Assembly (NCBI RefSeq): GCF_057098645.1 | Contig: NZ_CM169472.1 | Reading direction: 5' to 3' (one strand) | Length of the DNA stretch: 64,000 nucleotides | Part shown: in pieces, positions 12,746-49,898 of the stretch | Numbering within the stretch: position 1 is the stretch's first letter | Layout of the letters: every line of letters starts with the position of its first letter | Made by a program: the position numbers and the translations under genes | The notes under the pieces: model-generated | Database searches by the model: none | What the model was told of the DNA's origin: nothing | The model's input: the letters and a program-made list of their open reading frames with translations, nothing else

Positions 12746-13183
12746 TTATTTCAGGCATTGCGTCCTGATGTACTCCTGCAGGTAGTTAACCTGCGCGGTT
12801 ATCTTGTCGATTCCACCTCGGAGACGGTAATAATTGAGTTCAGCATCTGCTGTAAGTCCTGGGCTTTCTCCATCGCCCATGCTGCTGGCTCCGGTCGTTG
12901 ACTTTGCACAGGTGGCGGAGACTTGCAGGCGCTTACGCCCAGCAGAAACATCAGCACGGAGACTTTCGATAGTCGCATTAGCATCAGCAAGCTCCTTTGT
13001 GTATCTGGCGTCAAGTTCTGCTACATCACGTTGCCGCTTCTGCATATCAGCGATGATGGATGTGGCTTTATCGCGCTGCTCTTTGTAGGCGATGGCGTTA
13101 TCACGGTAATGATTAACAGCCCATGAAAGGCAGACGATGAGGCAGATGACCAGAACGTAGATAATCGCGGTTACTCTGCTCAT
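12746..13183 (-). CDS. Rz: Rz i-spanin
   Basis: [40 protein letters not shown]...; ATGA overlap with endolysin stop. Confidence 0.8.
12799..12978 (-). CDS. Rz1: Rz1 o-spanin lipoprotein (embedded in Rz, +1 frame)
   Basis: [34 protein letters not shown]: signal sequence, lipobox Cys, proline-rich; start approximate. Confidence 0.65.
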
Positions 13184-13677
13184 TGTTGCCCCCACAAACA
13201 GACTTCACGCTCAATCTCACGGCGAGTCATCAGCCCTTTCCATTGCTTACCGCCAGCGTATGTCCAGCGCCGTAGCTGATCACATGCGCCTTTGATATCG
13301 CCCTGGTTTATTTTGCGAAGAAGCGTCGATGTTCTGAAATTGCCAGCGCCCACGTTGTAAACGAACGAGTAAAGAGCGCCGCGCGTTGTTTCCGGTATAT
13401 CGATTTTGATGTACGGGTTAATTTGTCTGGCGACCGTGGCAAGGTCTTTATTCAGGAGGGCTTTGCATTCTGCTTCGGTATACGTTTTACCGGGCATGAT
13501 GTCTTTTCCGGTGTGTCCGTGACATACAGTCCATACACCAACAATATCTTTATATGGTATGTAGCTGACACCTTCCAGGCCATCGTCACCACTCGGACCA
13601 GTGATGAGCACAGACGCTATGGCAACAGCCCCACCACCAATAGCAGCAGCAACGGCTTTTCGTAATGATGGAGGCAT
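13180..13677 (-). CDS. R: SAR endolysin (phage 21 R-like lysozyme)
   Basis: 165 aa, N-terminal hydrophobic SAR segment [18 protein letters not shown] followed by lysozyme core. Confidence 0.8.
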
Positions 13678-13883
13678 TATTCACCTCTCGCAGCCTTGCG
13701 CTTATCTTCTTTAATCTTGAAATAAAGGTTTGTCAGATACGTCAGCAGGCCAAACAGCAGACTCCCCAGCACACCTATTGCCACCCACTGGGACGGAGAG
13801 ACTTTGTCCAGCAGCTGCAGTAACCAGTATCCCGTCCCCACCGCTGACGTGGTGTATGACACACCCGTTGTGATTTTTTCCAT
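13677..13883 (-). CDS. S: Pinholin (phage 21 S-like)
   Basis: [68 protein letters not shown]; two TMDs; ATG at 13883. Confidence 0.75.
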
Positions 13884-14175
13884 CTGATGTATGTCTCCGT
13901 CACCGCCGACAGAAAATGAAAGTAAAGGAAAACAAAAAGCCGCCAGTGTCACCCACTGACGGCCAACTCCGGGAGCCGTGATTATGGCATTCAGGCTCTG
14001 CTAAAAATGCCAGATAACATTCCGACCAACCCCTGATTCAGGTTATAAATGACACAATATCTTGACAACATCCGTCACTGTCTGTCAGAAAATGTACTGC
14101 CAAATATAAGTATCATGTGAAGTACATCTACCCGTTTTAGCCAGCGTCCTTCAGAGTGGGCGCTGGCTTTTTTTA

Positions 14176-16026
14176 TTATGCTGCCGGTGCATTTATCTCC
14201 AGCACCAGGCTTTCTATCTCAACGCCATACGCTGCATTTTTTGTAACATCCGTCAGCGTCAGCGCATTCAGCCCCAGTGTCAGACTGTCTTTTATGACCT
14301 GGAATGCCGGGCCAGCCACTCCATTCAGTTTCGGAGTAACCGTGGCACTGCCGGCGGTGAACACCAGCTCCAGCGTCTGCCAGTCGTTACCGTAATCGCC
14401 GAACTCCCCCAGCTTCGTGTTTCCGGCTTTCCTGTGATGCATCAGATTCACTCTGCCGTCAGTGGTCTGAGTAAAGTACGACATCAGGAACGGATTACCG
14501 GTACCCGTCATCGCCACATCATCAGGAACGGGAGCATCCGTATACAGATAAATCCCCAGCCCGAACTGATTGTTGGTCAGTGCGCCTGACAGGCGGAACT
14601 TACAGGTCAGTCTGCCGCCCTGTGTCAGCAGGGTAATTGCGTCATCCACCGGATGCGTCAGGGACCAGGTTTTATTGCTCTGCTTGGTGATCTTAAATAC
14701 ACCACCCGACAACTGAATTCCGCCATCCTTAATGCTCCAGCCCTGCGCAGCAGCCTCTCCGGCTGCCGGCAGCAGGGAGATTGTGCGAACGGACGTATCT
14801 GCAGACGGACCCGATGGCGTGTTGCCGCCGGGCGAGGGTTTGATTTCCGGTGCCTTACCACTGATGAAGGCTGAGGTGCGCCCGGCTGCGTTCAGAATAG
14901 CGGTTGCCAGACGATCCGGAATAATGCTCCTGCGCGCCCATGAACTGAAATGTGTCGGGCGGTTTGATGATACCTGGTTTCCATTCGTTCTCGATGCCGC
15001 ACCGTAATATCCTGATGCCGGAATATCCGGATCTTCTGCCGGCGCGTTAGTGGCGGTATTGACGCCGTTACCGTCTGTCATGAAGGGCACAAAATAAACG
15101 CCCTCACTCTCCCTGTTTTTATACCCGCCGTACACGGTGTCGTACTGGGTAGCGTATGTATTTTTCCAGTAATACGTCGTGTCACCACAAATCCACGGCA
15201 CATCTGCAGCGCTGCCACCATGGCACTGCGCGTTAAACACAGTGAGGTCAGCACGAAACTGCTTCAGCATGGCTGTAAACAGCGCAGGTTGCTGTGCGTG
15301 GGTGGCGGCGCTCATGTCAAACTCTCCCTGCATCCAGCACACCGCCAGCAACACATTTTTCGGGTTCTTCTGTAATGCAGCTTTAGTGCGCGCAATCAGG
15401 TCCTGATATAACGGTTTACCCACACCCCAGCGCGCCGAATCCTGGCTGGCCCCCGCGTCCGCACTGAATGTCCCCTCCGCGCCCTGGGTGAATGCCGAAC
15501 CACCACGACAGCATGGTACCAGCAGGATCCCCGCGTTATTCGGGATATACGGAAGCAGTTTTTTGGCAATATGTAAGCCCTGGCCGACACAGCCGTACTG
15601 CCCTTTGCTCAGGTCTGCCTTCGGATGATTCAGCGTACTCATATCCTGCACATCATGCAGGCAGTGGTCGGCCGGAATAATATCGTTATATCTGCAGGCA
15701 GCCCCGCCCGGCGTCACTGTACTGCGGCGCGCCAGCTGTTTAATGCGCGGATCCGGAGCATCGTATGAATCCGGCAGCGGAAGCCCTTCACCGTAAGCCA
15801 TGGCATTGGACTGCCCGGCCAGTACGATGACGTAGTACCAATCCGGCTCAGTTGCACCACTGACCACCACATCACCTTCTGCTGTAATCGCCTGCATCAG
15901 GGTATAAGGGGTTATGGCCACCGGACTACCAAACGGCTGCCAGCCCTCTTTCAGTTTGTGTGTCAGCTTTTCCGCAAGGTCTGACGGCGACGCCGCCCTG
16001 ACAACATCATAATGTTTAATCGACAT
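14176..16026 (-). CDS. nanS: Prophage 9-O-acetyl-sialic acid esterase (NanS-p-like)
   Basis: 616-aa protein in the conserved position between Q/tRNA and the holin, where Stx-type phages carry nanS-p. Confidence 0.6.
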   Translation of the reverse strand: MSIKHYDVVRAASPSDLAEKLTHKLKEGWQPFGSPVAITPYTLMQAITAEGDVVVSGATEPDWYYVIVLAGQSNAMAYGEGLPLPDSYDAPDPRIKQLARRSTVTPGGAACRYNDIIPADHCLHDVQDMSTLNHPKADLSKGQYGCVGQGLHIAKKLLPYIPNNAGILLVPCCRGGSAFTQGAEGTFSADAGASQDSARWGVGKPLYQDLIARTKAALQKNPKNVLLAVCWMQGEFDMSAATHAQQPALFTAMLKQFRADLTVFNAQCHGGSAADVPWICGDTTYYWKNTYATQYDTVYGGYKNRESEGVYFVPFMTDGNGVNTATNAPAEDPDIPASGYYGAASRTNGNQVSSNRPTHFSSWARRSIIPDRLATAILNAAGRTSAFISGKAPEIKPSPGGNTPSGPSADTSVRTISLLPAAGEAAAQGWSIKDGGIQLSGGVFKITKQSNKTWSLTHPVDDAITLLTQGGRLTCKFRLSGALTNNQFGLGIYLYTDAPVPDDVAMTGTGNPFLMSYFTQTTDGRVNLMHHRKAGNTKLGEFGDYGNDWQTLELVFTAGSATVTPKLNGVAGPAFQVIKDSLTLGLNALTLTDVTKNAAYGVEIESLVLEINAPAA

Positions 16027-16112
16027 CGAATTTCTCCCGTGTACAGGAACAGAGTTAAAAAGCCGGAACCGGAATCAAATCACAGGATGACCATCTGCCA
16101 GTGGCTGGTCGT

Positions 16113-16140
16113 AAAAAAAAGGCCGCGCCATGCGCAGCCG
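16113..16140 (-). terminator. Rho-independent terminator upstream of nanS-p
   Basis: Minus strand reads cggctgcgcatggcgcggcc followed by T8. Confidence 0.5.
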
Positions 16141-16340
16141 GAAATAAAGGGATAACGATGATAGTTTGAGAAAAACAGAAATAACACTTTTGTGGCAAAG
16201 CATGGTGCCGGGTGCCTCCCGGTGAATTCAGTACCAGCACCTGAATCCGCGATTATCCCATATACCTACTCGCTGATTGCCCCTCCGCACAGGGGGATTC
16301 ACCATGCAGTAGTATTTTTAATAAACAGTAAACAAAAAAA

Positions 16341-16508
16341 TCAAGCATTATGCAGGCTGTTTCTTTTTATCACCGGCCACAGCAATACCACAATGCCGCA
16401 GACCAGCACCCCATCCGCCAGCACCGACATGATTCTGCTGGTGAAATCCACCATCACCACCAGAAACAGCAGGAGTGCAGCCACAGCCAGGCGCAGTTTT
16501 ACCGTCAC
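16341..16508 (-). CDS. Possible small membrane protein (GTG start) coupled to the TerB-like gene
   Basis: 55 codons, VTVKLRLAVAALLLFLVVMVDFTSRIMSVLADGVLVCGIVVLLWPVIKRNSLHNA; GTGA overlap with upstream stop. Confidence 0.3.
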   Translation of the reverse strand: MTVKLRLAVAALLLFLVVMVDFTSRIMSVLADGVLVCGIVVLLWPVIKRNSLHNA

Positions 16509-16966
16509 TGGTGATTCTCCAGACGAAGACCCAGAACACCGGCAATCTCTTCCAGCACCTTGCGCTCTTCCGGCTCAATTTCGCCGTCTGCCTCCGCAAT
16601 GGCCACCGCCACATCCAGCACATCTTCCGCTTCACGCGTATCGTGTTTCACATCCTCGATCTCACGTAACGCCGCACGACGACCAATTTTAAAGTTCGTA
16701 TCCAGCTGACCGATAATGGTTGCGCTCATCGCATTAATTTCTGACGTAAACGCGGACAGCGCTGGCTGATTACGCAGTACCTGTTCGATCTTCGCTTTCT
16801 CGGAAGCCTCACATTCACCATCTGCACAGGCCACCAGGTATGCGGCGTTAATCACCGCCTGTGCCAGATCGCGTTTTTCAAACTTTTTAATTTCCGTTGC
16901 CGCTCTGCGGGCTTTTTTTACCAAAAATACCAAACATCGTGACGTTCCTTTGGGTGGGTGAGCCAA
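16505..16966 (-). CDS. TerB-like (tellurite-resistance family) protein
   Basis: 153 aa with two ACADGECEASE / AEADGEIEPEE repeats typical of TerB-like domains; occupies the locus where stxAB sits in Stx phages. Confidence 0.45.
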   Translation of the reverse strand: MAHPPKGTSRCLVFLVKKARRAATEIKKFEKRDLAQAVINAAYLVACADGECEASEKAKIEQVLRNQPALSAFTSEINAMSATIIGQLDTNFKIGRRAALREIEDVKHDTREAEDVLDVAVAIAEADGEIEPEERKVLEEIAGVLGLRLENHQ

Positions 16967-17107
16967 CGCCCGGGAGCGATCTGCCCACAGAGAAAGTCAC
17001 ACTGACCACTCCGTAAGCTCCCCCCCGAAAGGCTCTGTGGTTGGTATGCGCCGGGCGTGGCGCGGATACAAAAAAGGTCCGCAAAAGCGAGCGAGGGAAA
17101 ATAAGTG

Positions 17108-17184
17108 TGGTGCGTTGTACTGGGTTCGAACCAGTGACCGATTGCTTAGAAGGCTGGCGTTCTATCCCGATGAGCTAATGGCGG
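17108..17184 (-). tRNA. tRNA-Arg(UCU)-like, possibly degenerate
   Basis: Good T-arm (ACTGG TTCGAAC CCAGT), ACAACGC-A-CCA 3' end and anticodon loop CTTCTAA, but acceptor and anticodon stems pair poorly. Confidence 0.45.
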
Positions 17185-17185
17185 T

Positions 17186-17261
17186 TGGTGGCCCTTGCTG
17201 GATTTGAACCAGCGACCTGGCGATTATGAGTCGCTCGCTCTCACCACTGAGCTAAAGGGCC
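17186..17261 (-). tRNA. tRNA-Ile(CAU) / tRNA-Met-type (ileZ-like)
   Basis: GGCCCTTTAGCTCAGTGGTGAGAGCGAGCGACTCATAATCGCCAGGTCGCTGGTTCAAATCCAGCAAGGGCCACCA folds as a cloverleaf, anticodon CAT. Confidence 0.7.
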
Positions 17262-17574
17262 TAGCGTAGGATAATAACGTTACGAAATCAATGTTGCAAG
17301 AGTTCACAAATTCACTGATTCAAAATTATTCTTGTAAAAAATCTTTTAACGTCAGGCACAAAGAGCCTGTACATAGATTTGTGTAATTGCCTGATTTTGA
17401 TATGTTCAATCCAGCATCAAATGAAGGTTAATTTATGGACGAAAAACAGTTACAGGCTCTAATGACCTTTATACGATTGACCCAAATAAAAAAAGCCACC
17501 GTTGCAACTTAAGAGTCACTAACGGCAGCTTATGCGAATAGTGTTGCTCATTTGCTCAACGATGTCAACACGTT

Positions 17575-18063
17575 CTATGCTACATGCTTAATTTTCTCTA
17601 CACGTTTCCGGTTTTTAAACGCACTATCCAGAATCGGGTAAATCATAAACAACGAGGCATTGAGGATTTCGTCAACTTCCCGTCGACAGGTTGCTAGCGA
17701 TGGTTTTTGAATGCGCCCGCCGCCCCGGCATAACATCTTGCGAGGTCTTGCGACGCTATGATAGTAAGATGCAATGGCGTGCTTGGAAGAGCCGTGGGCG
17801 TAGTAGCTGAGGAGGATGCCAAAGGCTTTCTTGTCAATGTACATGACGGAATCGACGACCTGAGAAATCAACATTCCATCATCATCATTACACATTGGCC
17901 TTGTCATAACTCTTCCCGGCTCCACGCTCTCCATGAATTTAGCTATTACGCTGCTCATGCGCTTTTCCAGACGACCTGAATAAACCCATGCGCCCCACAG
18001 TTCAAGCCAGCCATTCAGCCACTCATGCTGTTCTTTGGTGAGGTTTAGTTCTCTTATGCCCAC
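17575..18063 (-). CDS. Q: Late-gene antiterminator Q (putative)
   Basis: 162-aa ORF directly upstream of the tRNAs and late genes, after the nin region. Confidence 0.5.
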
Positions 18064-18725
18064 GCGCCTTCTCCCTGTACCTGAATCAATGTGAGATTTC
18101 CGCAGAACACTGCGCCGGTATCGATATACATCTGGTTGGCAAATTTGAGTGGTTTCACTGCTTGCGTATGACCAAAGATGAACGTGTCCGCGCCTTTGAT
18201 TTCTTTCACGATCCCGTCTTGTGAGTTGCTGATTCGTTCGCGGTTCCAGATTACCTGCTGATGATCAACTGGCTTTCCAAACTCGTATTTATCACAAGGA
18301 TAATCGGCGTGGCAGATGACATATTTTTTTCCTTTACTCACCAGTTCGATGATTAACGGAAGTTCATCTGCTTTATGGGCAAGAGCTTTAGCCAGAATTT
18401 CTTTGTCGTAATCGAGATTAAAGAACCAGCCACCGCCATTAAGCAGCCAGTGATTGACGTTTCCACGCTCTGATAAGCCATCAATCATCATTTGCTCATG
18501 GTTTCCACGTACAGCTCTGAACCAGGGGAATGTGATTAATTCCAGGCATTCTACGTTCTCTGTACCGCGATCAACCAAATCGCCCACCGAGATAAGCAGG
18601 TCTTTTTTGGTGTCGAATCCTATCGTCTCCAGTTTTTTCATCAGGTTCGTGTAGCATCCGTGCAGATCGCCAACTACCCAAATATTTCGGTATTTGCTGC
18701 CATCAATTCTTTCGTAGATATTCAT
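18054..18725 (-). CDS. Ser/Thr protein phosphatase (lambda NinI-like)
   Basis: Metallophosphatase motifs GDLHGC, GDLVDRG, GNHE. Confidence 0.8.
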
Positions 18726-19324
18726 GCAACCTCACTTCTGCTGTTTCGCAGTTTTTTAAGTTTCTGTTGATACTCCGCCTTGATGGCCCTGCACTCTTCG
18801 ACAGTCCAGCGATAGCGGTTATGGTTTGATTCGATTTCCTCTACTGCTTCCTGCCCGATGCGGCTAATCAGTTCGACGCGATACGGAACGAGATTTCCGC
18901 TTTTGTGCTGGTTGCACACCACGCATTGCTTGTGAATATTGCGTTCATCAAATCGGAGTTGAGGTGCCGCAGCAGTTGTCCGGTAATGTCCGGCATCCCA
19001 CTGAGCAGACGTGAGCGTTCCGCACGAGATACATGGTAAGTCGCGGTCTCTTTCTCTGATGAAGGCGTTTACGGCTTGTTGGGCTTGTTTAATCCAGTAA
19101 CTGCGGGGCTTTAAGGCGAGTTTTTGAATCTTAAGTTTATCTTTCTGTTTCTGCTCCTCTCGTCGTCGTTTCTTCTCTGCTGCTTTTTCCGCTTTTTCGC
19201 GTTCTTTACTTCGTCGTTCGAGTGCTATCTTGGTTCCACAAATCTCATTACACAAATATTGATTTTGATATTTTGGTATAAACCATTCATTGCAACATTT
19301 ACATTTCCTTCGATAGATTCGCAT
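18722..19324 (-). CDS. ninG: NinG recombination protein
   Basis: [15 protein letters not shown]...[30 protein letters not shown]... collinear with lambda NinG; ATG at 19324. Confidence 0.8.
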
Positions 19325-19865
19325 AAGTGCTCCTTTCGTTGCCGGAAAAATCACCGTAATACTTATCTCGGGCTTCTTCAGCAACTAGTACCGCTAACTC
19401 CAGATCATCAAAGCATCCGAAGTGTTTACTCTTTCCATGGAATCCTAGCCTAACATTCCATTTTTTCTGTCGTTTGTGCCAAGTAACCCCTCTGCAACCT
19501 GATTTGCTATTCTTTCGGATCCTTATATTTCTTGAATTTTCTATTGGCAGGCATTCTCTTAAATTTTCTGGCCTATTGTCGGTCCTAATTCCATTAACGT
19601 GGTCAATTTGACCAGCAGGCCAACGATTATGAGTTATGTAAAAAACTAAGACGTGAGTTTTATATCTACGCCCATCTATCATGATCATTGAATAACCGTT
19701 GGAATCAAAAGTTCCAGCAACACTATTTAATGCTATCCTTCCCTGAGTGGGAACTTTCCATCTAAATACCCCGGTAGATTTATCGAAACTTAGTAACTCA
19801 AATATCCTTTTAACAGTTAAATCTTCTCTTTTACGGTTACATCGTCTTCGCGCTGGTTTAGCCAT
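19299..19865 (-). CDS. HNH homing endonuclease with AP2 domain, carrying the NinG N-terminus
   Basis: Begins MAKPARRRC (as lambda NinG) then HNH motif [16 protein letters not shown] and AP2-like [30 protein letters not shown]. Confidence 0.7.
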
Positions 19866-20059
19866 CGCCTTCTTCCTCCGTAATGGTTTTCTGAATTTGG
19901 CCACCTGAACAGAGCTCACCAAAGCTATGGATGTCGGTATTTCCACAATACCAAGATGGCGAAAATAACTGCATGATAAGCCTCAGGGAAAAGGGAAGAC
20001 ACTACCCCCGATAATTCAGAAACAAATCGAAATACATGAACTAAAGAAAAAATCACAAC

Positions 20060-49725: not shown

Positions 49726-49898
49726 GATGAGCATTCAGATAGTGGTTCACGCGCACGGGTTGCGCACCGCCGGAGTAAGGATTTACTGAGGCTAGCGACG
49801 CCATCATAACGAGCAAAAAGTGCGATCGTCAAAGGAGAATCGTGAGGAAATGCTGCATTGCTGACATTTACGCCAGCAATGCAACGTCAAAGAACTTT

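Follow-up and report, generated by a model that had tools for sequence, protein, structure and literature searches.

The window analysed here, a stretch of 64,000 nucleotides of contig NZ_CM169472.1 (assembly GCF_057098645.1), carries on its minus strand, in this order, the gene for the late antiterminator Q, a tRNA region, tciA, tciB, an STnc100-family sRNA gene, a terminator, nanS-p and the lysis genes S, R and Rz. Its best whole match is strain 14EC001 (90% coverage, 98.8% identity), and since this match is partial the prophage is a mosaic. All features described below lie on the minus strand. The open reading frame at 17575..18063 encodes a Q of the phage-21 type, which PGAP calls ‘antiterminator Q family protein’ in the identical region of FORC_042 and which the annotation of phage Nil2 describes as ‘similar to bacteriophage 21 late antiterminator Q’. 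The allele is 100% identical to Q of phage Stx2a_F349 and is the same in Stx2a and Stx2c phages. The late terminator tR' was placed at 17484..17531 by homology with Nil2, where tR' is annotated at locus 1216-1263 and q ends at 1307 (the stretch is 96.7% identical). At the other end of the region lie the listed open reading frames of a nanS-p-type SASA sialate O-acetylesterase (14176..16026; ‘SASA family carbohydrate esterase’ in PGAP) and, after it, of S, R and Rz (12746-13952), an order that the annotation of phage JLK-2012 repeats with yjhS, S, R and Rz; between the holins of the window and of the Stx2a phage the identity is 98%.

Between Q and the cargo the initial annotation had placed ‘tRNAs’ in the plural. 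One of these is intact, a tRNA-Ile2 gene with anticodon CAU (ileZ, 17186..17261), which was identified by ARAGORN, by PGAP (tRNA-Ile) and by the Rfam tRNA model (72.5 bits) and does not differ from ileZ of the Stx2a phage (100% identity). The second is a tRNA-Arg pseudogene (17111..17184), recognised by alignment as a chimera of the 5' half of argN and the 3' half of argO joined by a 90-bp deletion (the BLAST offsets lie 90 nt apart). Its acceptor-stem halves are mismatched, its Rfam tRNA score of 19.7 bits falls under the 29-bit threshold, and neither ARAGORN nor PGAP calls a tRNA there. Upstream of ileZ a scan returned a promoter-like site (17299..17271), in a region whose promoter count is no higher than in shuffled sequences.

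The alignment with Stx2a_F349 defines the borders of the cargo. Window and Stx2 phage are 99.1% identical over 17144-19237 and agree in Q, tR' and ileZ; the homology is lost at 17059 and returns at 16307, within the STnc100 sRNA, such that 751 bp in the window stand in place of the 1386 bp of stx2AB. Because Q, tR' and ileZ are shared and homology resumes in the sRNA that follows stx2B, tciAB occupies the position of stx2AB, and the stx-equivalent slot claimed by the initial annotation is thus confirmed. Its second claim, that no A/B toxin subunits are present, also holds for the Stx2 queries used: neither a tblastn search with Stx2A and Stx2B nor a blastn search with stx2 DNA gave anything significant in 16000-17100, and over the whole window the best Stx2A/B tblastn match had an E value of 0.11, with no stx remnant.

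The cargo itself is the known phage accessory pair tciA-tciB (PHROG 632 and 1470; PF05099 and PF13064), first named in phage P1; both PHROG families are filed under ‘moron, auxiliary metabolic gene and host takeover’. For tciA (16505..16937), the TerB-like assignment made initially stands, as the 153-aa reading frame (16505..16966) matches Pfam TerB PF05099 over model positions 2-109 of 118 (E 1.1e-11). The length of 153 aa does not; it is an artefact which arose because the first upstream TTG was taken as start. A precomputed PF05099 match is present in all of the more than 100 TciA homologues, and an intact homologue used as query (JLK-2012 TciA, L001:4537-4968) matches phrog_632 end to end (1-143 of 143, E 3.8e-69). 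In a phmmer search against the PDB, residues 14-137 of TciA aligned with chain residues 20-144 of TerB 2JXU (E 2.9e-8). The AlphaFold2 model of TciA (pLDDT 87.5, pTM 0.82) has seven helices, and its best Foldseek matches in the PDB are 2H5N (probability 1.00, TM 0.53-0.62) and 2OU3 (probability 0.75), the latter a ‘tellurite resistance protein of COG3793’, at modest E values (8e-3). TciA is a full-length TerB homologue, soluble and all-helical; the Foldseek result supports the all-alpha TerB-like fold without deciding it. An acidic ADG...E motif occurs twice, as D39-G40...E46 and as D117-G118...E124; across 48 homologues its residues are either invariant or conserved above 90%, and both copies are predicted to bind metal. 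Against NCBIfam nothing scored above cut-off for TciA, TciB, nanS-p or Q, with sub-threshold similarities to DjlA and YmfL only.

The possible 55-codon hydrophobic reading frame noted earlier over the stop of the TerB gene is a genuine gene, tciB (16341..16508), encoding an intact 55-aa protein with Pfam domain DUF3927 (PF13064, E 4.8e-17) and a match to phrog_1470 over positions 1-54 of 54 (E 4e-30). Its GTG start overlaps the tciA stop in the GTGA at 16505-16508 (within ...CAGTGA). Hydropathy and alignment with the TciB proteins of P1, 434, JLK-2012 and Pollock place two hydrophobic helices in it, by which TciB is a predicted two-helix protein of the inner membrane. Chance open reading frames were rejected for both genes on homology, because the PHROG matches span the full length of the families. 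TciA-TciB fusions (P0008, P0066) were given no weight as a functional link, the one place examined being a draft assembly with a likely indel at GTGA.

Upstream of tciA lies a leader (16938..17058) with the Shine-Dalgarno sequence AAGGA. It is 85-100% identical in all 80 of the 80 IMG/VR tciA loci, and 97-100% identical in 74 of these, whatever the Q and tRNA set; leader, tciA and tciB co-occur in every one. A structured RNA or promoter in the leader was considered and dropped (fold z = -1.2): Rfam gave no match beyond noise and the scan no sigma-70-like site. Downstream of tciB the initial annotation had missed an STnc100-family, PasD-related sRNA gene (16167..16333; RF02076 covariance model, 101.1 bits against a gathering score of 47 bits, E 2e-22). 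Stx2a_F349 has a member of this family 75 nt downstream of stx2B (158.5 bits), where it has been reported before, and STnc100 has been detected by RT-PCR in STEC vesicles (PMC12370729). The terminator announced after the cargo is there as well, as one intrinsic terminator (16111..16139; the hairpin scan gives 16139..16121 plus T-run) with an 8-bp GC-rich stem, a 3-nt loop and U8, and is 96-100% conserved in 40 of 88 related loci, namely those where blastn found it. The whole fold of sRNA plus terminator has a z of -1.6, an uninformative value.

The tciA copy of the window is frameshifted. The conserved start of the family is the ATG at 16937, and the N-terminus MFGxF(G/K)KK is kept across genera. 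Where intact alleles have a run of six A (A6), the window has seven (A7, 16913-16919); this shifts the frame at codon 9, and the frame from ATG 16937 ends after 16 codons (stop 16887-16889). The gene is thus not open from its conserved ATG and represents a frameshifted allele of a tciA-tciB family member. As a consequence of the A7 frameshift, the TerB frame can be reached only from TTG 16933, which yields the 142-aa protein called by PGAP (ancestral TciA has 143 aa). This TTG has a Shine-Dalgarno spacing of 12 nt and competes with the ATG still in place, so that TciA of the window is probably made only weakly from it, or not at all. The shifted N-terminus, MVFLVKK, retains the hydrophobic-then-basic character, and the A7 copy may still work.

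The A7 tract is by no means peculiar to the window. It is the majority state of its haplotype in E. coli genomes (553 records with A7 and 8 with A6 for the 75/76-nt haplotype), and PGAP treats the allele as intact. Among IMG/VR copies, a nonsense codon at position 45 occurs in 30 of 51 with A7 and in 2 of 79 without it, although the 30 may go back to one clonal event; tciB is intact in all. These data bear directly on a rival explanation that we rate as quite possible, if somewhat less than probable, namely that tciA of the window is a dead pseudogene, that the working parts of the slot are only tciB and/or the STnc100-family sRNA, and that the cassette is decaying. The loss of the family-wide start and N-terminus by a +1 frameshift, the 12-nt spacing of the remaining TTG and its competition with the ATG, and the spread of the nonsense codon next to an unbroken tciB would all be expected on this explanation, and the neighbouring tRNA-Arg is likewise a deletion chimera. 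Set against it are the rest of the TerB frame, which is intact both here and in EDL933, the annotation of a 142-aa protein by PGAP, and the variable sites among A7 alleles, where 17 synonymous stand against 13 non-synonymous ones instead of the roughly 1:3 expected under neutrality, a ratio that recombination with intact alleles could also explain.

Beyond the window, the cassette is common. Four E. coli genomes contain annotated genes that match the window cargo at 100% identity, and in the 100%-identical FORC_042 region PGAP annotates TerB family and DUF3927. Of 5426 E. coli genomes, 651 contain the cassette, with a median of 3 copies among these carriers (O157:H7 included), and it is enriched in prophages of pathogenic E. 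coli. Both genes are annotated in phages JLK-2012, 434, 2B8 and P1, and they lie adjacent in temperate P1, in virulent N4-like phages (Pollock, FSL SP-076, As2, Shigella B2) and in the Erwinia jumbo phage Caitlin; tciA stop and tciB start abut or overlap in P1, Pollock and Caitlin too. The unusual toxin substitute which the initial annotation implied is hence not supported, tciA-tciB being a widespread and long-annotated phage cassette. Nor is it a conserved core phage gene, an outcome weighed at the outset, given that tciABC of P1 is accessory and non-essential (PMC10695390). Literature searches on DUF3927, tciA and TerB around lambdoid phages or nanS-p brought up annotation mentions and no functional study of TciA or TciB.

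What the pair may do is suggested by its neighbourhood. In the roughly eight phages examined, each TciA homologue is directly followed by a gene for a membrane protein. In the Pseudomonas phages AF and Ebordelon this is a single-pass protein of 65-67 aa, and in Vibrio phage D502, which represents one phage lineage, a protein of the Na+/Ca2+-exchanger family (PF01699 twice). From this constant partner, and from the presence of the pair in temperate and virulent phages alike, we infer a role in membrane or ion homeostasis during phage growth. Our preferred reading, held as a whole with modest confidence, builds on what the sequence shows: 16100-17060 is the known phage accessory cassette of leader, tciA, tciB, STnc100 sRNA and terminator, set in the late operon of a mosaic lambdoid prophage at the place of stxAB in Stx phages. 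By placement, late and Q-dependent expression is a reasonable inference: once Q antiterminates, the pR' transcript would pass tR', the tRNA genes, tciAB and the sRNA terminator and run on into nanS-p and the lysis genes. The weak terminator-like hairpin downstream of the tRNAs and the strong terminator downstream of the sRNA count against such expression. TciA would work on the cytoplasmic side of the inner membrane, where it would partner or regulate the membrane protein whose gene comes next, in parallel to TerB and TerC of the ter operon. The pair would stabilise the envelope and the cation (Ca2+/metal) balance of the infected cell while the phage develops. The benefit would be the phage's own rather than that of a toxin-like or virulence cargo, and the window would hold an attenuated version, with tciA frameshifted and tciB and the sRNA intact.

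An unlikely alternative, though one with some basis in homology, makes tciAB a superinfection-exclusion, anti-phage or anti-colicin device, in which the two proteins, associated with the membrane, would keep out competing phages and pore-forming colicins or prevent the membrane damage that these cause (compare ter Phi and PacB). TciA is homologous to TerB of the ter operon, which PMC8123226 implicates in phage inhibition and colicin resistance, phenotypes from which the tci name derives; the partner TciB lies in the membrane and the cassette in an accessory slot of prophages. Yet TerB alone is not known to give these phenotypes. In the literature found, tellurite, phage-inhibition and colicin phenotypes belong to terBCDEF, which the cited functional constructs carry, or to larger clusters. 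In addition, the window tciA copy is frameshifted, and a catalogued defence system was rejected since nothing in PADLOC matched significantly, the best score (E 0.0031, 14.6 bits) being against a candidate that is uncharacterised.

The membrane-partner reading can be extended, in a form that we consider distinctly improbable, to a TciA that serves as the cation-sensing cytoplasmic subunit of a phage membrane device with interchangeable partners and, in E. coli prophages, with the A6/A7 tract as its on/off switch. These partners may be TciB in enterobacterial phages, the single-pass protein in Pseudomonas phages, the Na+/Ca2+ exchanger in Vibrio phages and TerC in the ter operon. If true, phages would possess a general, unrecognised means of controlling the Ca2+/metal or membrane state of the host during infection, and its switch would sit at a site that otherwise carries Shiga toxin.

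Lysogenic-conversion cargo following the logic of stx, that is, a tellurite or oxidative-stress resistance, virulence or fitness trait, which the initial annotation implied, is very improbable. The stx slot, the enrichment in pathogenic strains and the multiple copies per genome would suit it, and the promoter-like site upstream of ileZ could give some expression in the lysogen, although the regional promoter count does not exceed that of shuffles. However, strictly virulent N4-like and jumbo phages, which form no lysogens, also carry the pair, tciAB lacks any signal peptide or toxin-like domain, and tellurite resistance needs at least terBCDE(F), whereas none of the neighbours (tRNAs, tciB, nanS-p) is a ter gene.

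The tract itself was found in both states within FORC_042, in different prophages, and it is not the same in the orthologous prophages that O157:H7 strains 86-24 and EDL933 carry. A6 copies of the A7 haplotype were dropped as a sign of reversible switching, since the assembly of an 86-24 derivative has 3 gaps relative to EDL933 within 3 kb and an assembly error is possible. Least probable of all, though close to the preceding one in this respect, is a tract that tunes the dose of TciA without killing the gene, whether by slipped-strand phase variation or by programmed slippage on AAA AAA A, at transcription or as +1 slippage of the ribosome: one haplotype in both states would fit, but the nonsense mutation has spread in the A7 lineage, a stimulatory codon or structure is not evident, and a run of seven A is short for efficient slippage.

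The presence of tciA-tciB in the stx slot is real but ordinary, and the main effect of our result is to dispose of a false lead: non-Stx lambdoid prophages commonly hold a gene pair other than a toxin at this position, and reference genomes already have it annotated. Our results also highlight that automatic annotation hides the frameshift, as the majority allele in E. coli passes for an intact tciA with a TTG start while the conserved start is lost and many sister copies carry a nonsense codon besides. Being among the more widespread phage accessory pairs of putative function only, tciA-tciB now comes with a concrete, testable hypothesis in the recurring neighbourhood of a TerB-like protein plus a membrane protein.

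Of the known systems, the closest are the prophage copies of JLK-2012 (O55:H7), EDL933 and FORC_042, with the same cassette at the same position (93-100% identity). JLK-2012 differs in its intact A6 allele (143 aa), its tRNA set (Asn, Thr, Gly) and the C-terminus of TciB; EDL933 has the A7 frameshift in common with the window, but a different Q and both tRNA-Arg genes. In P1 tciA-tciB-tciC, homology extends over the full length of TciA (41.5% identity, residues 1-142), TciB is homologous with the common motif DFTS...DG.LV...WP, and tRNA genes, including tRNA-Ile2(CAU), flank the cluster as well. The P1 cluster differs by the extra small gene tciC (35 aa), which the window lacks, by its place outside a Q-dependent late operon and without STnc100 downstream, and by a tciA that is in frame. 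TerB of terZABCDE(F) (Klebsiella pneumoniae, 2JXU) shares the domain over its whole length (143 and about 151 aa) and the duplicated ADG...E motifs, and it too acts beside a membrane protein, given its reported interaction with the membrane protein TerC (PMC11003894). Here, in contrast, terC, terD and terE are not near tciA and the partner is a 55-aa DUF3927 protein, such that tciA of the window, with tRNAs, tciB, the sRNA and nanS-p as neighbours, encodes a TerB-domain protein but is not a ter operon member. The STnc100/PasD prophage sRNAs likewise lie upstream of a sialate esterase gene in lambdoid prophages (bioRxiv 10.64898/2026.05.13.724894); in the window copy a portion of the model's central region is missing (101 bits, against 158 in the Stx2a phage). 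Finally, Stx2 phages (Stx2a_F349, Nil2, 2851, 933W type) agree with the window in an identical Q, tR' and ileZ upstream, in STnc100 sRNA, nanS-p and a class II holin downstream, and in a cargo inserted between tRNA array and sRNA. They differ in that cargo, an AB5 toxin without sequence similarity to the TerB-like and small membrane proteins found here, in the tRNA-Arg gene which the window has lost by deletion, and in nanS-p, which is only about 71% identical. The boundaries at 17059 and 16307 show stxAB and tciAB to be alternatives to each other, inserted after the same tRNA array and before the same sRNA; this helps to explain the origin of Stx phages by recombination.

The tciA-tciB cassette in the stx slot is real and was rightly located by the initial annotation; it is also already known and ordinary. 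On the minus strand, the Q antiterminator gene (18063-17575) is followed by tR' (about 17531-17484, mapped by homology), tRNA-Ile2(CAU) (17261-17186), a degenerate tRNA-like stretch (17184-17111), a 120-nt leader, the TerB-domain ORF (tciA, ending at 16505), a hydrophobic 55-codon ORF (tciB, 16508-16341) whose GTG start overlaps the tciA stop (GTGA), a small-RNA gene of the STnc100 family (16333-16167, Rfam), an intrinsic terminator (16139-16111) and the gene for a 616-aa esterase (nanS-p, 16026-14176), then S, R and Rz. The order first described, with its TerB-like gene, hydrophobic 55-codon ORF and terminator, is thus confirmed; the sRNA between tciB and the terminator had been overlooked. 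Of the tRNAs reported there, a single one, tRNA-Ile2(CAU), is intact, and the second element (17111-17184, -) is a chimeric tRNA-Arg pseudogene, a 90-bp deletion having joined the 5' half of argN to the 3' half of argO. The two sides of its acceptor stem are mismatched, the tRNA model scores it at 19.7 bits, and neither ARAGORN nor PGAP calls a tRNA in it. A sigma-70-like match (TTGCAA-17-TATTAT, 17271-17299, -) just 5' of tRNA-Ile2 could serve tRNA expression in the lysogen and perhaps some tciAB expression too; such matches in the region are not more numerous than in shuffles. A 47-aa ORF (16012-16155, +) that runs opposite the terminator and the beginning of nanS-p is most likely not a gene; PGAP flags its equivalent as an incomplete pseudo 'hypothetical protein'.

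The proposed TerB-like nature of the cargo was borne out by domain search (Pfam PF05099, E 1.1e-11) and by a nearly full-length match to PDB TerB 2JXU (E 2.9e-8). The AlphaFold2 model is of good confidence (pLDDT 87.5) and all-helical, with the TerB-like entries 2H5N and 2OU3 as top structural matches. The 55-codon ORF is DUF3927 (E 4.8e-17); its product is hydrophobic in two segments and has basic residues at each end. End-to-end PHROGs matches to phrog_632 'tellurite resistance' (E 3.8e-69) and phrog_1470 'TciB-like...' (E 4e-30), both categorized as 'moron, auxiliary metabolic gene and host takeover', make it near certain that the cargo is the tciA-tciB pair, so named in records of phages JLK-2012, 434, 2B8 and P1 and called 'tellurite resistance TerB family protein' and 'DUF3927 family protein' by PGAP. 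The tci name rests on homology only; we found no functional study of tciA or tciB in the literature.

The claimed absence of toxin genes holds: Stx2A and Stx2B (tblastn) and stx2 DNA (blastn) gave no match in 16000-17100, and the best match across the whole window has E 0.11. Comparison with the stx-positive prophage Stx2a_F349 also bears out the assignment of the cargo to the stx position. Identity is 99.1% over 17144-19237, spanning Q, tR' and ileZ; homology reaches down to 17059 and restarts at 16307 within the sRNA, and between these junctions the window holds 751 bp (16308-17058) in place of 1386 bp with stx2A and stx2B. It is near certain that this is the slot used by stx2AB. Its right-hand border is an STnc100-family (PasD-related) sRNA gene, found 3' of tciB in the window (101 bits) and likewise in JLK-2012 and EDL933, and directly 3' of stx2B in Stx2a_F349 (RF02076, 158 bits; L004 3431-3642). 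These positions agree with the reported location of STnc100, 75 nt 3' of the stx2 operon (PMC12370729), and with the description of STnc100/PasD-type sRNAs adjoining the sialate esterase gene in lambdoid prophages (preprint 10.64898/2026.05.13.724894).

The 1074-bp region first described (16027-17100) is 100% identical in four RefSeq E. coli genomes and covered to at least 80% in 651 of 5426, including O157:H7 EDL933. Leader, tciA and tciB occur together in 80/80 tciA-carrying IMG/VR loci with varying Q types and tRNA sets, so the cassette is a module that recombines as a unit. The cargo does not belong to the phage core: CRISPRi shows tciA, tciB and tciC of P1 to be dispensable (PMC10695390). 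Unrelated phage types share the placing of tRNA genes directly beside tciA (P1, Asn/Thr/Ile; JLK-2012, Asn/Thr/Gly; Erwinia phage Caitlin, Trp/Cys; the window, Ile/Arg). An E. coli PA11 draft contig carries a 197-aa TciA-TciB fusion (PF05099 + PF13064; L088 1501-2094), the probable cause being an indel in this draft sequence where the two genes overlap (GTGA).

The 153-aa length first given for the TerB-like protein was mechanical. The N-terminus MFGxF(G/K)KK is conserved across Escherichia, Klebsiella, Salmonella, Serratia, Pantoea, Enterobacter and Erwinia jumbo phages, placing the start at ATG 16937 behind a good Shine-Dalgarno sequence. An A-run at 16913-16919 has seven residues in the window (A7) versus six in JLK-2012 (A6, intact), and the ATG frame closes 16 codons in. 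TTG 16933 alone gives access to the TerB frame, with a 12-nt spacing to the Shine-Dalgarno sequence and in competition with the ATG; PGAP takes this start, and its 142-aa call reads as intact, so automatic annotation masks the frameshift. A sequencing error was rejected since EDL933 shares A7. Among E. coli records, 553 contain an exact match to the A7 76-mer versus 8 with the A6 form, making the frameshift the majority state of this haplotype; other A7 copies include loci L090 and L092-L096. In IMG/VR, 30/51 A7 copies, retrieved without bias, carry an extra nonsense codon at position 45 versus 2/79 other alleles, which suggests that constraint on A7 tciA is relaxed, as far as clonality and recombination allow; tciB is intact in all. 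A tciA that no longer works, leaving tciB and the sRNA as the active parts of the slot, would fit this excess and the intact tciB; the window tciA carries no lesion beyond A7. A slippage switch at the A tract is an unlikely rival reading, against which stands the nonsense codon in 30 of the A7 copies.

Transcription of tciAB would be late and Q-dependent, with read-through into nanS-p and the lysis genes, given a placement 3' of the Q-tR' unit identical to that in Stx2 phages. A membrane protein lies directly 3' of the TciA homologue in every case inspected: TciB in P1, N4-like phages and an Erwinia jumbo phage, a 65-67-aa single-pass protein 3' of the TerB-like gene in Pseudomonas phages Ebordelon and AF, and a 360-aa Na+/Ca2+-exchanger-family protein in Vibrio phage D502, whose gene pair ties phage TerB-like proteins to cation exchange. 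The AF ORF (65 aa; L139 about 1350-1550, +) is unannotated and homologous to the annotated Ebordelon 'membrane protein' (L141 1343-1546). The D502 genes (L142 620-1702 and 1772-2200, both -) are separated by 70 nt, and the 360-aa product, annotated only as hypothetical, has two Na_Ca_ex (PF01699) domains. Together with the reported interaction of TerB with the membrane protein TerC (PMC11003894), the phage distribution and two acidic ADG...E motifs conserved in TciA, these neighbours suggest that TciA may work with its downstream partner on the cytoplasmic side of the membrane, where the two might keep the envelope or cation homeostasis of the infected cell, a mechanism we consider possible rather than probable. 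Superinfection exclusion or colicin protection is a less likely rival role for tciAB, compatible with a membrane partner. Conversion benefiting the host would suit a prophage cargo in the stx slot, but tciA and tciB are adjacent in strictly virulent N4-like phages and an Erwinia jumbo phage as well as in temperate P1, which argues that the pair would serve phage development, not lysogenic conversion.

Rfam matches above threshold elsewhere are an ALIL pseudoknot (IS3-family frameshift element; 30626-30742, -), hence an IS inside the prophage, the lambda cIII thermoregulator (33402-33460, +), and Peptidase-S11 RNA (49730-49810, -) and naRNA4 (61459-61536, -), both probably marking chromosomal flank. 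In the nin region, on the opposite strand, a 590-aa ORF (20411-22183, +), AT-rich by eye, matches phrog_9230 (unknown function) over the full length, is also carried by FORC_042 as a 'hypothetical protein', and looks like another inserted accessory gene.

Of value here are the stxAB swap junctions, the masked frameshift and the repeated occurrence of a membrane-protein gene beside one for a TerB-like protein, which offers a hypothesis to test for this uncharacterised phage pair. The comparison with Stx2a_F349 extends to the nin region, where an HNH endonuclease ORF (phrog_99) adjoins NinG in the window (19299-19946, -) whereas in Stx2a_F349 this position is taken by Roi and antirepressor genes, so this region is mosaic.
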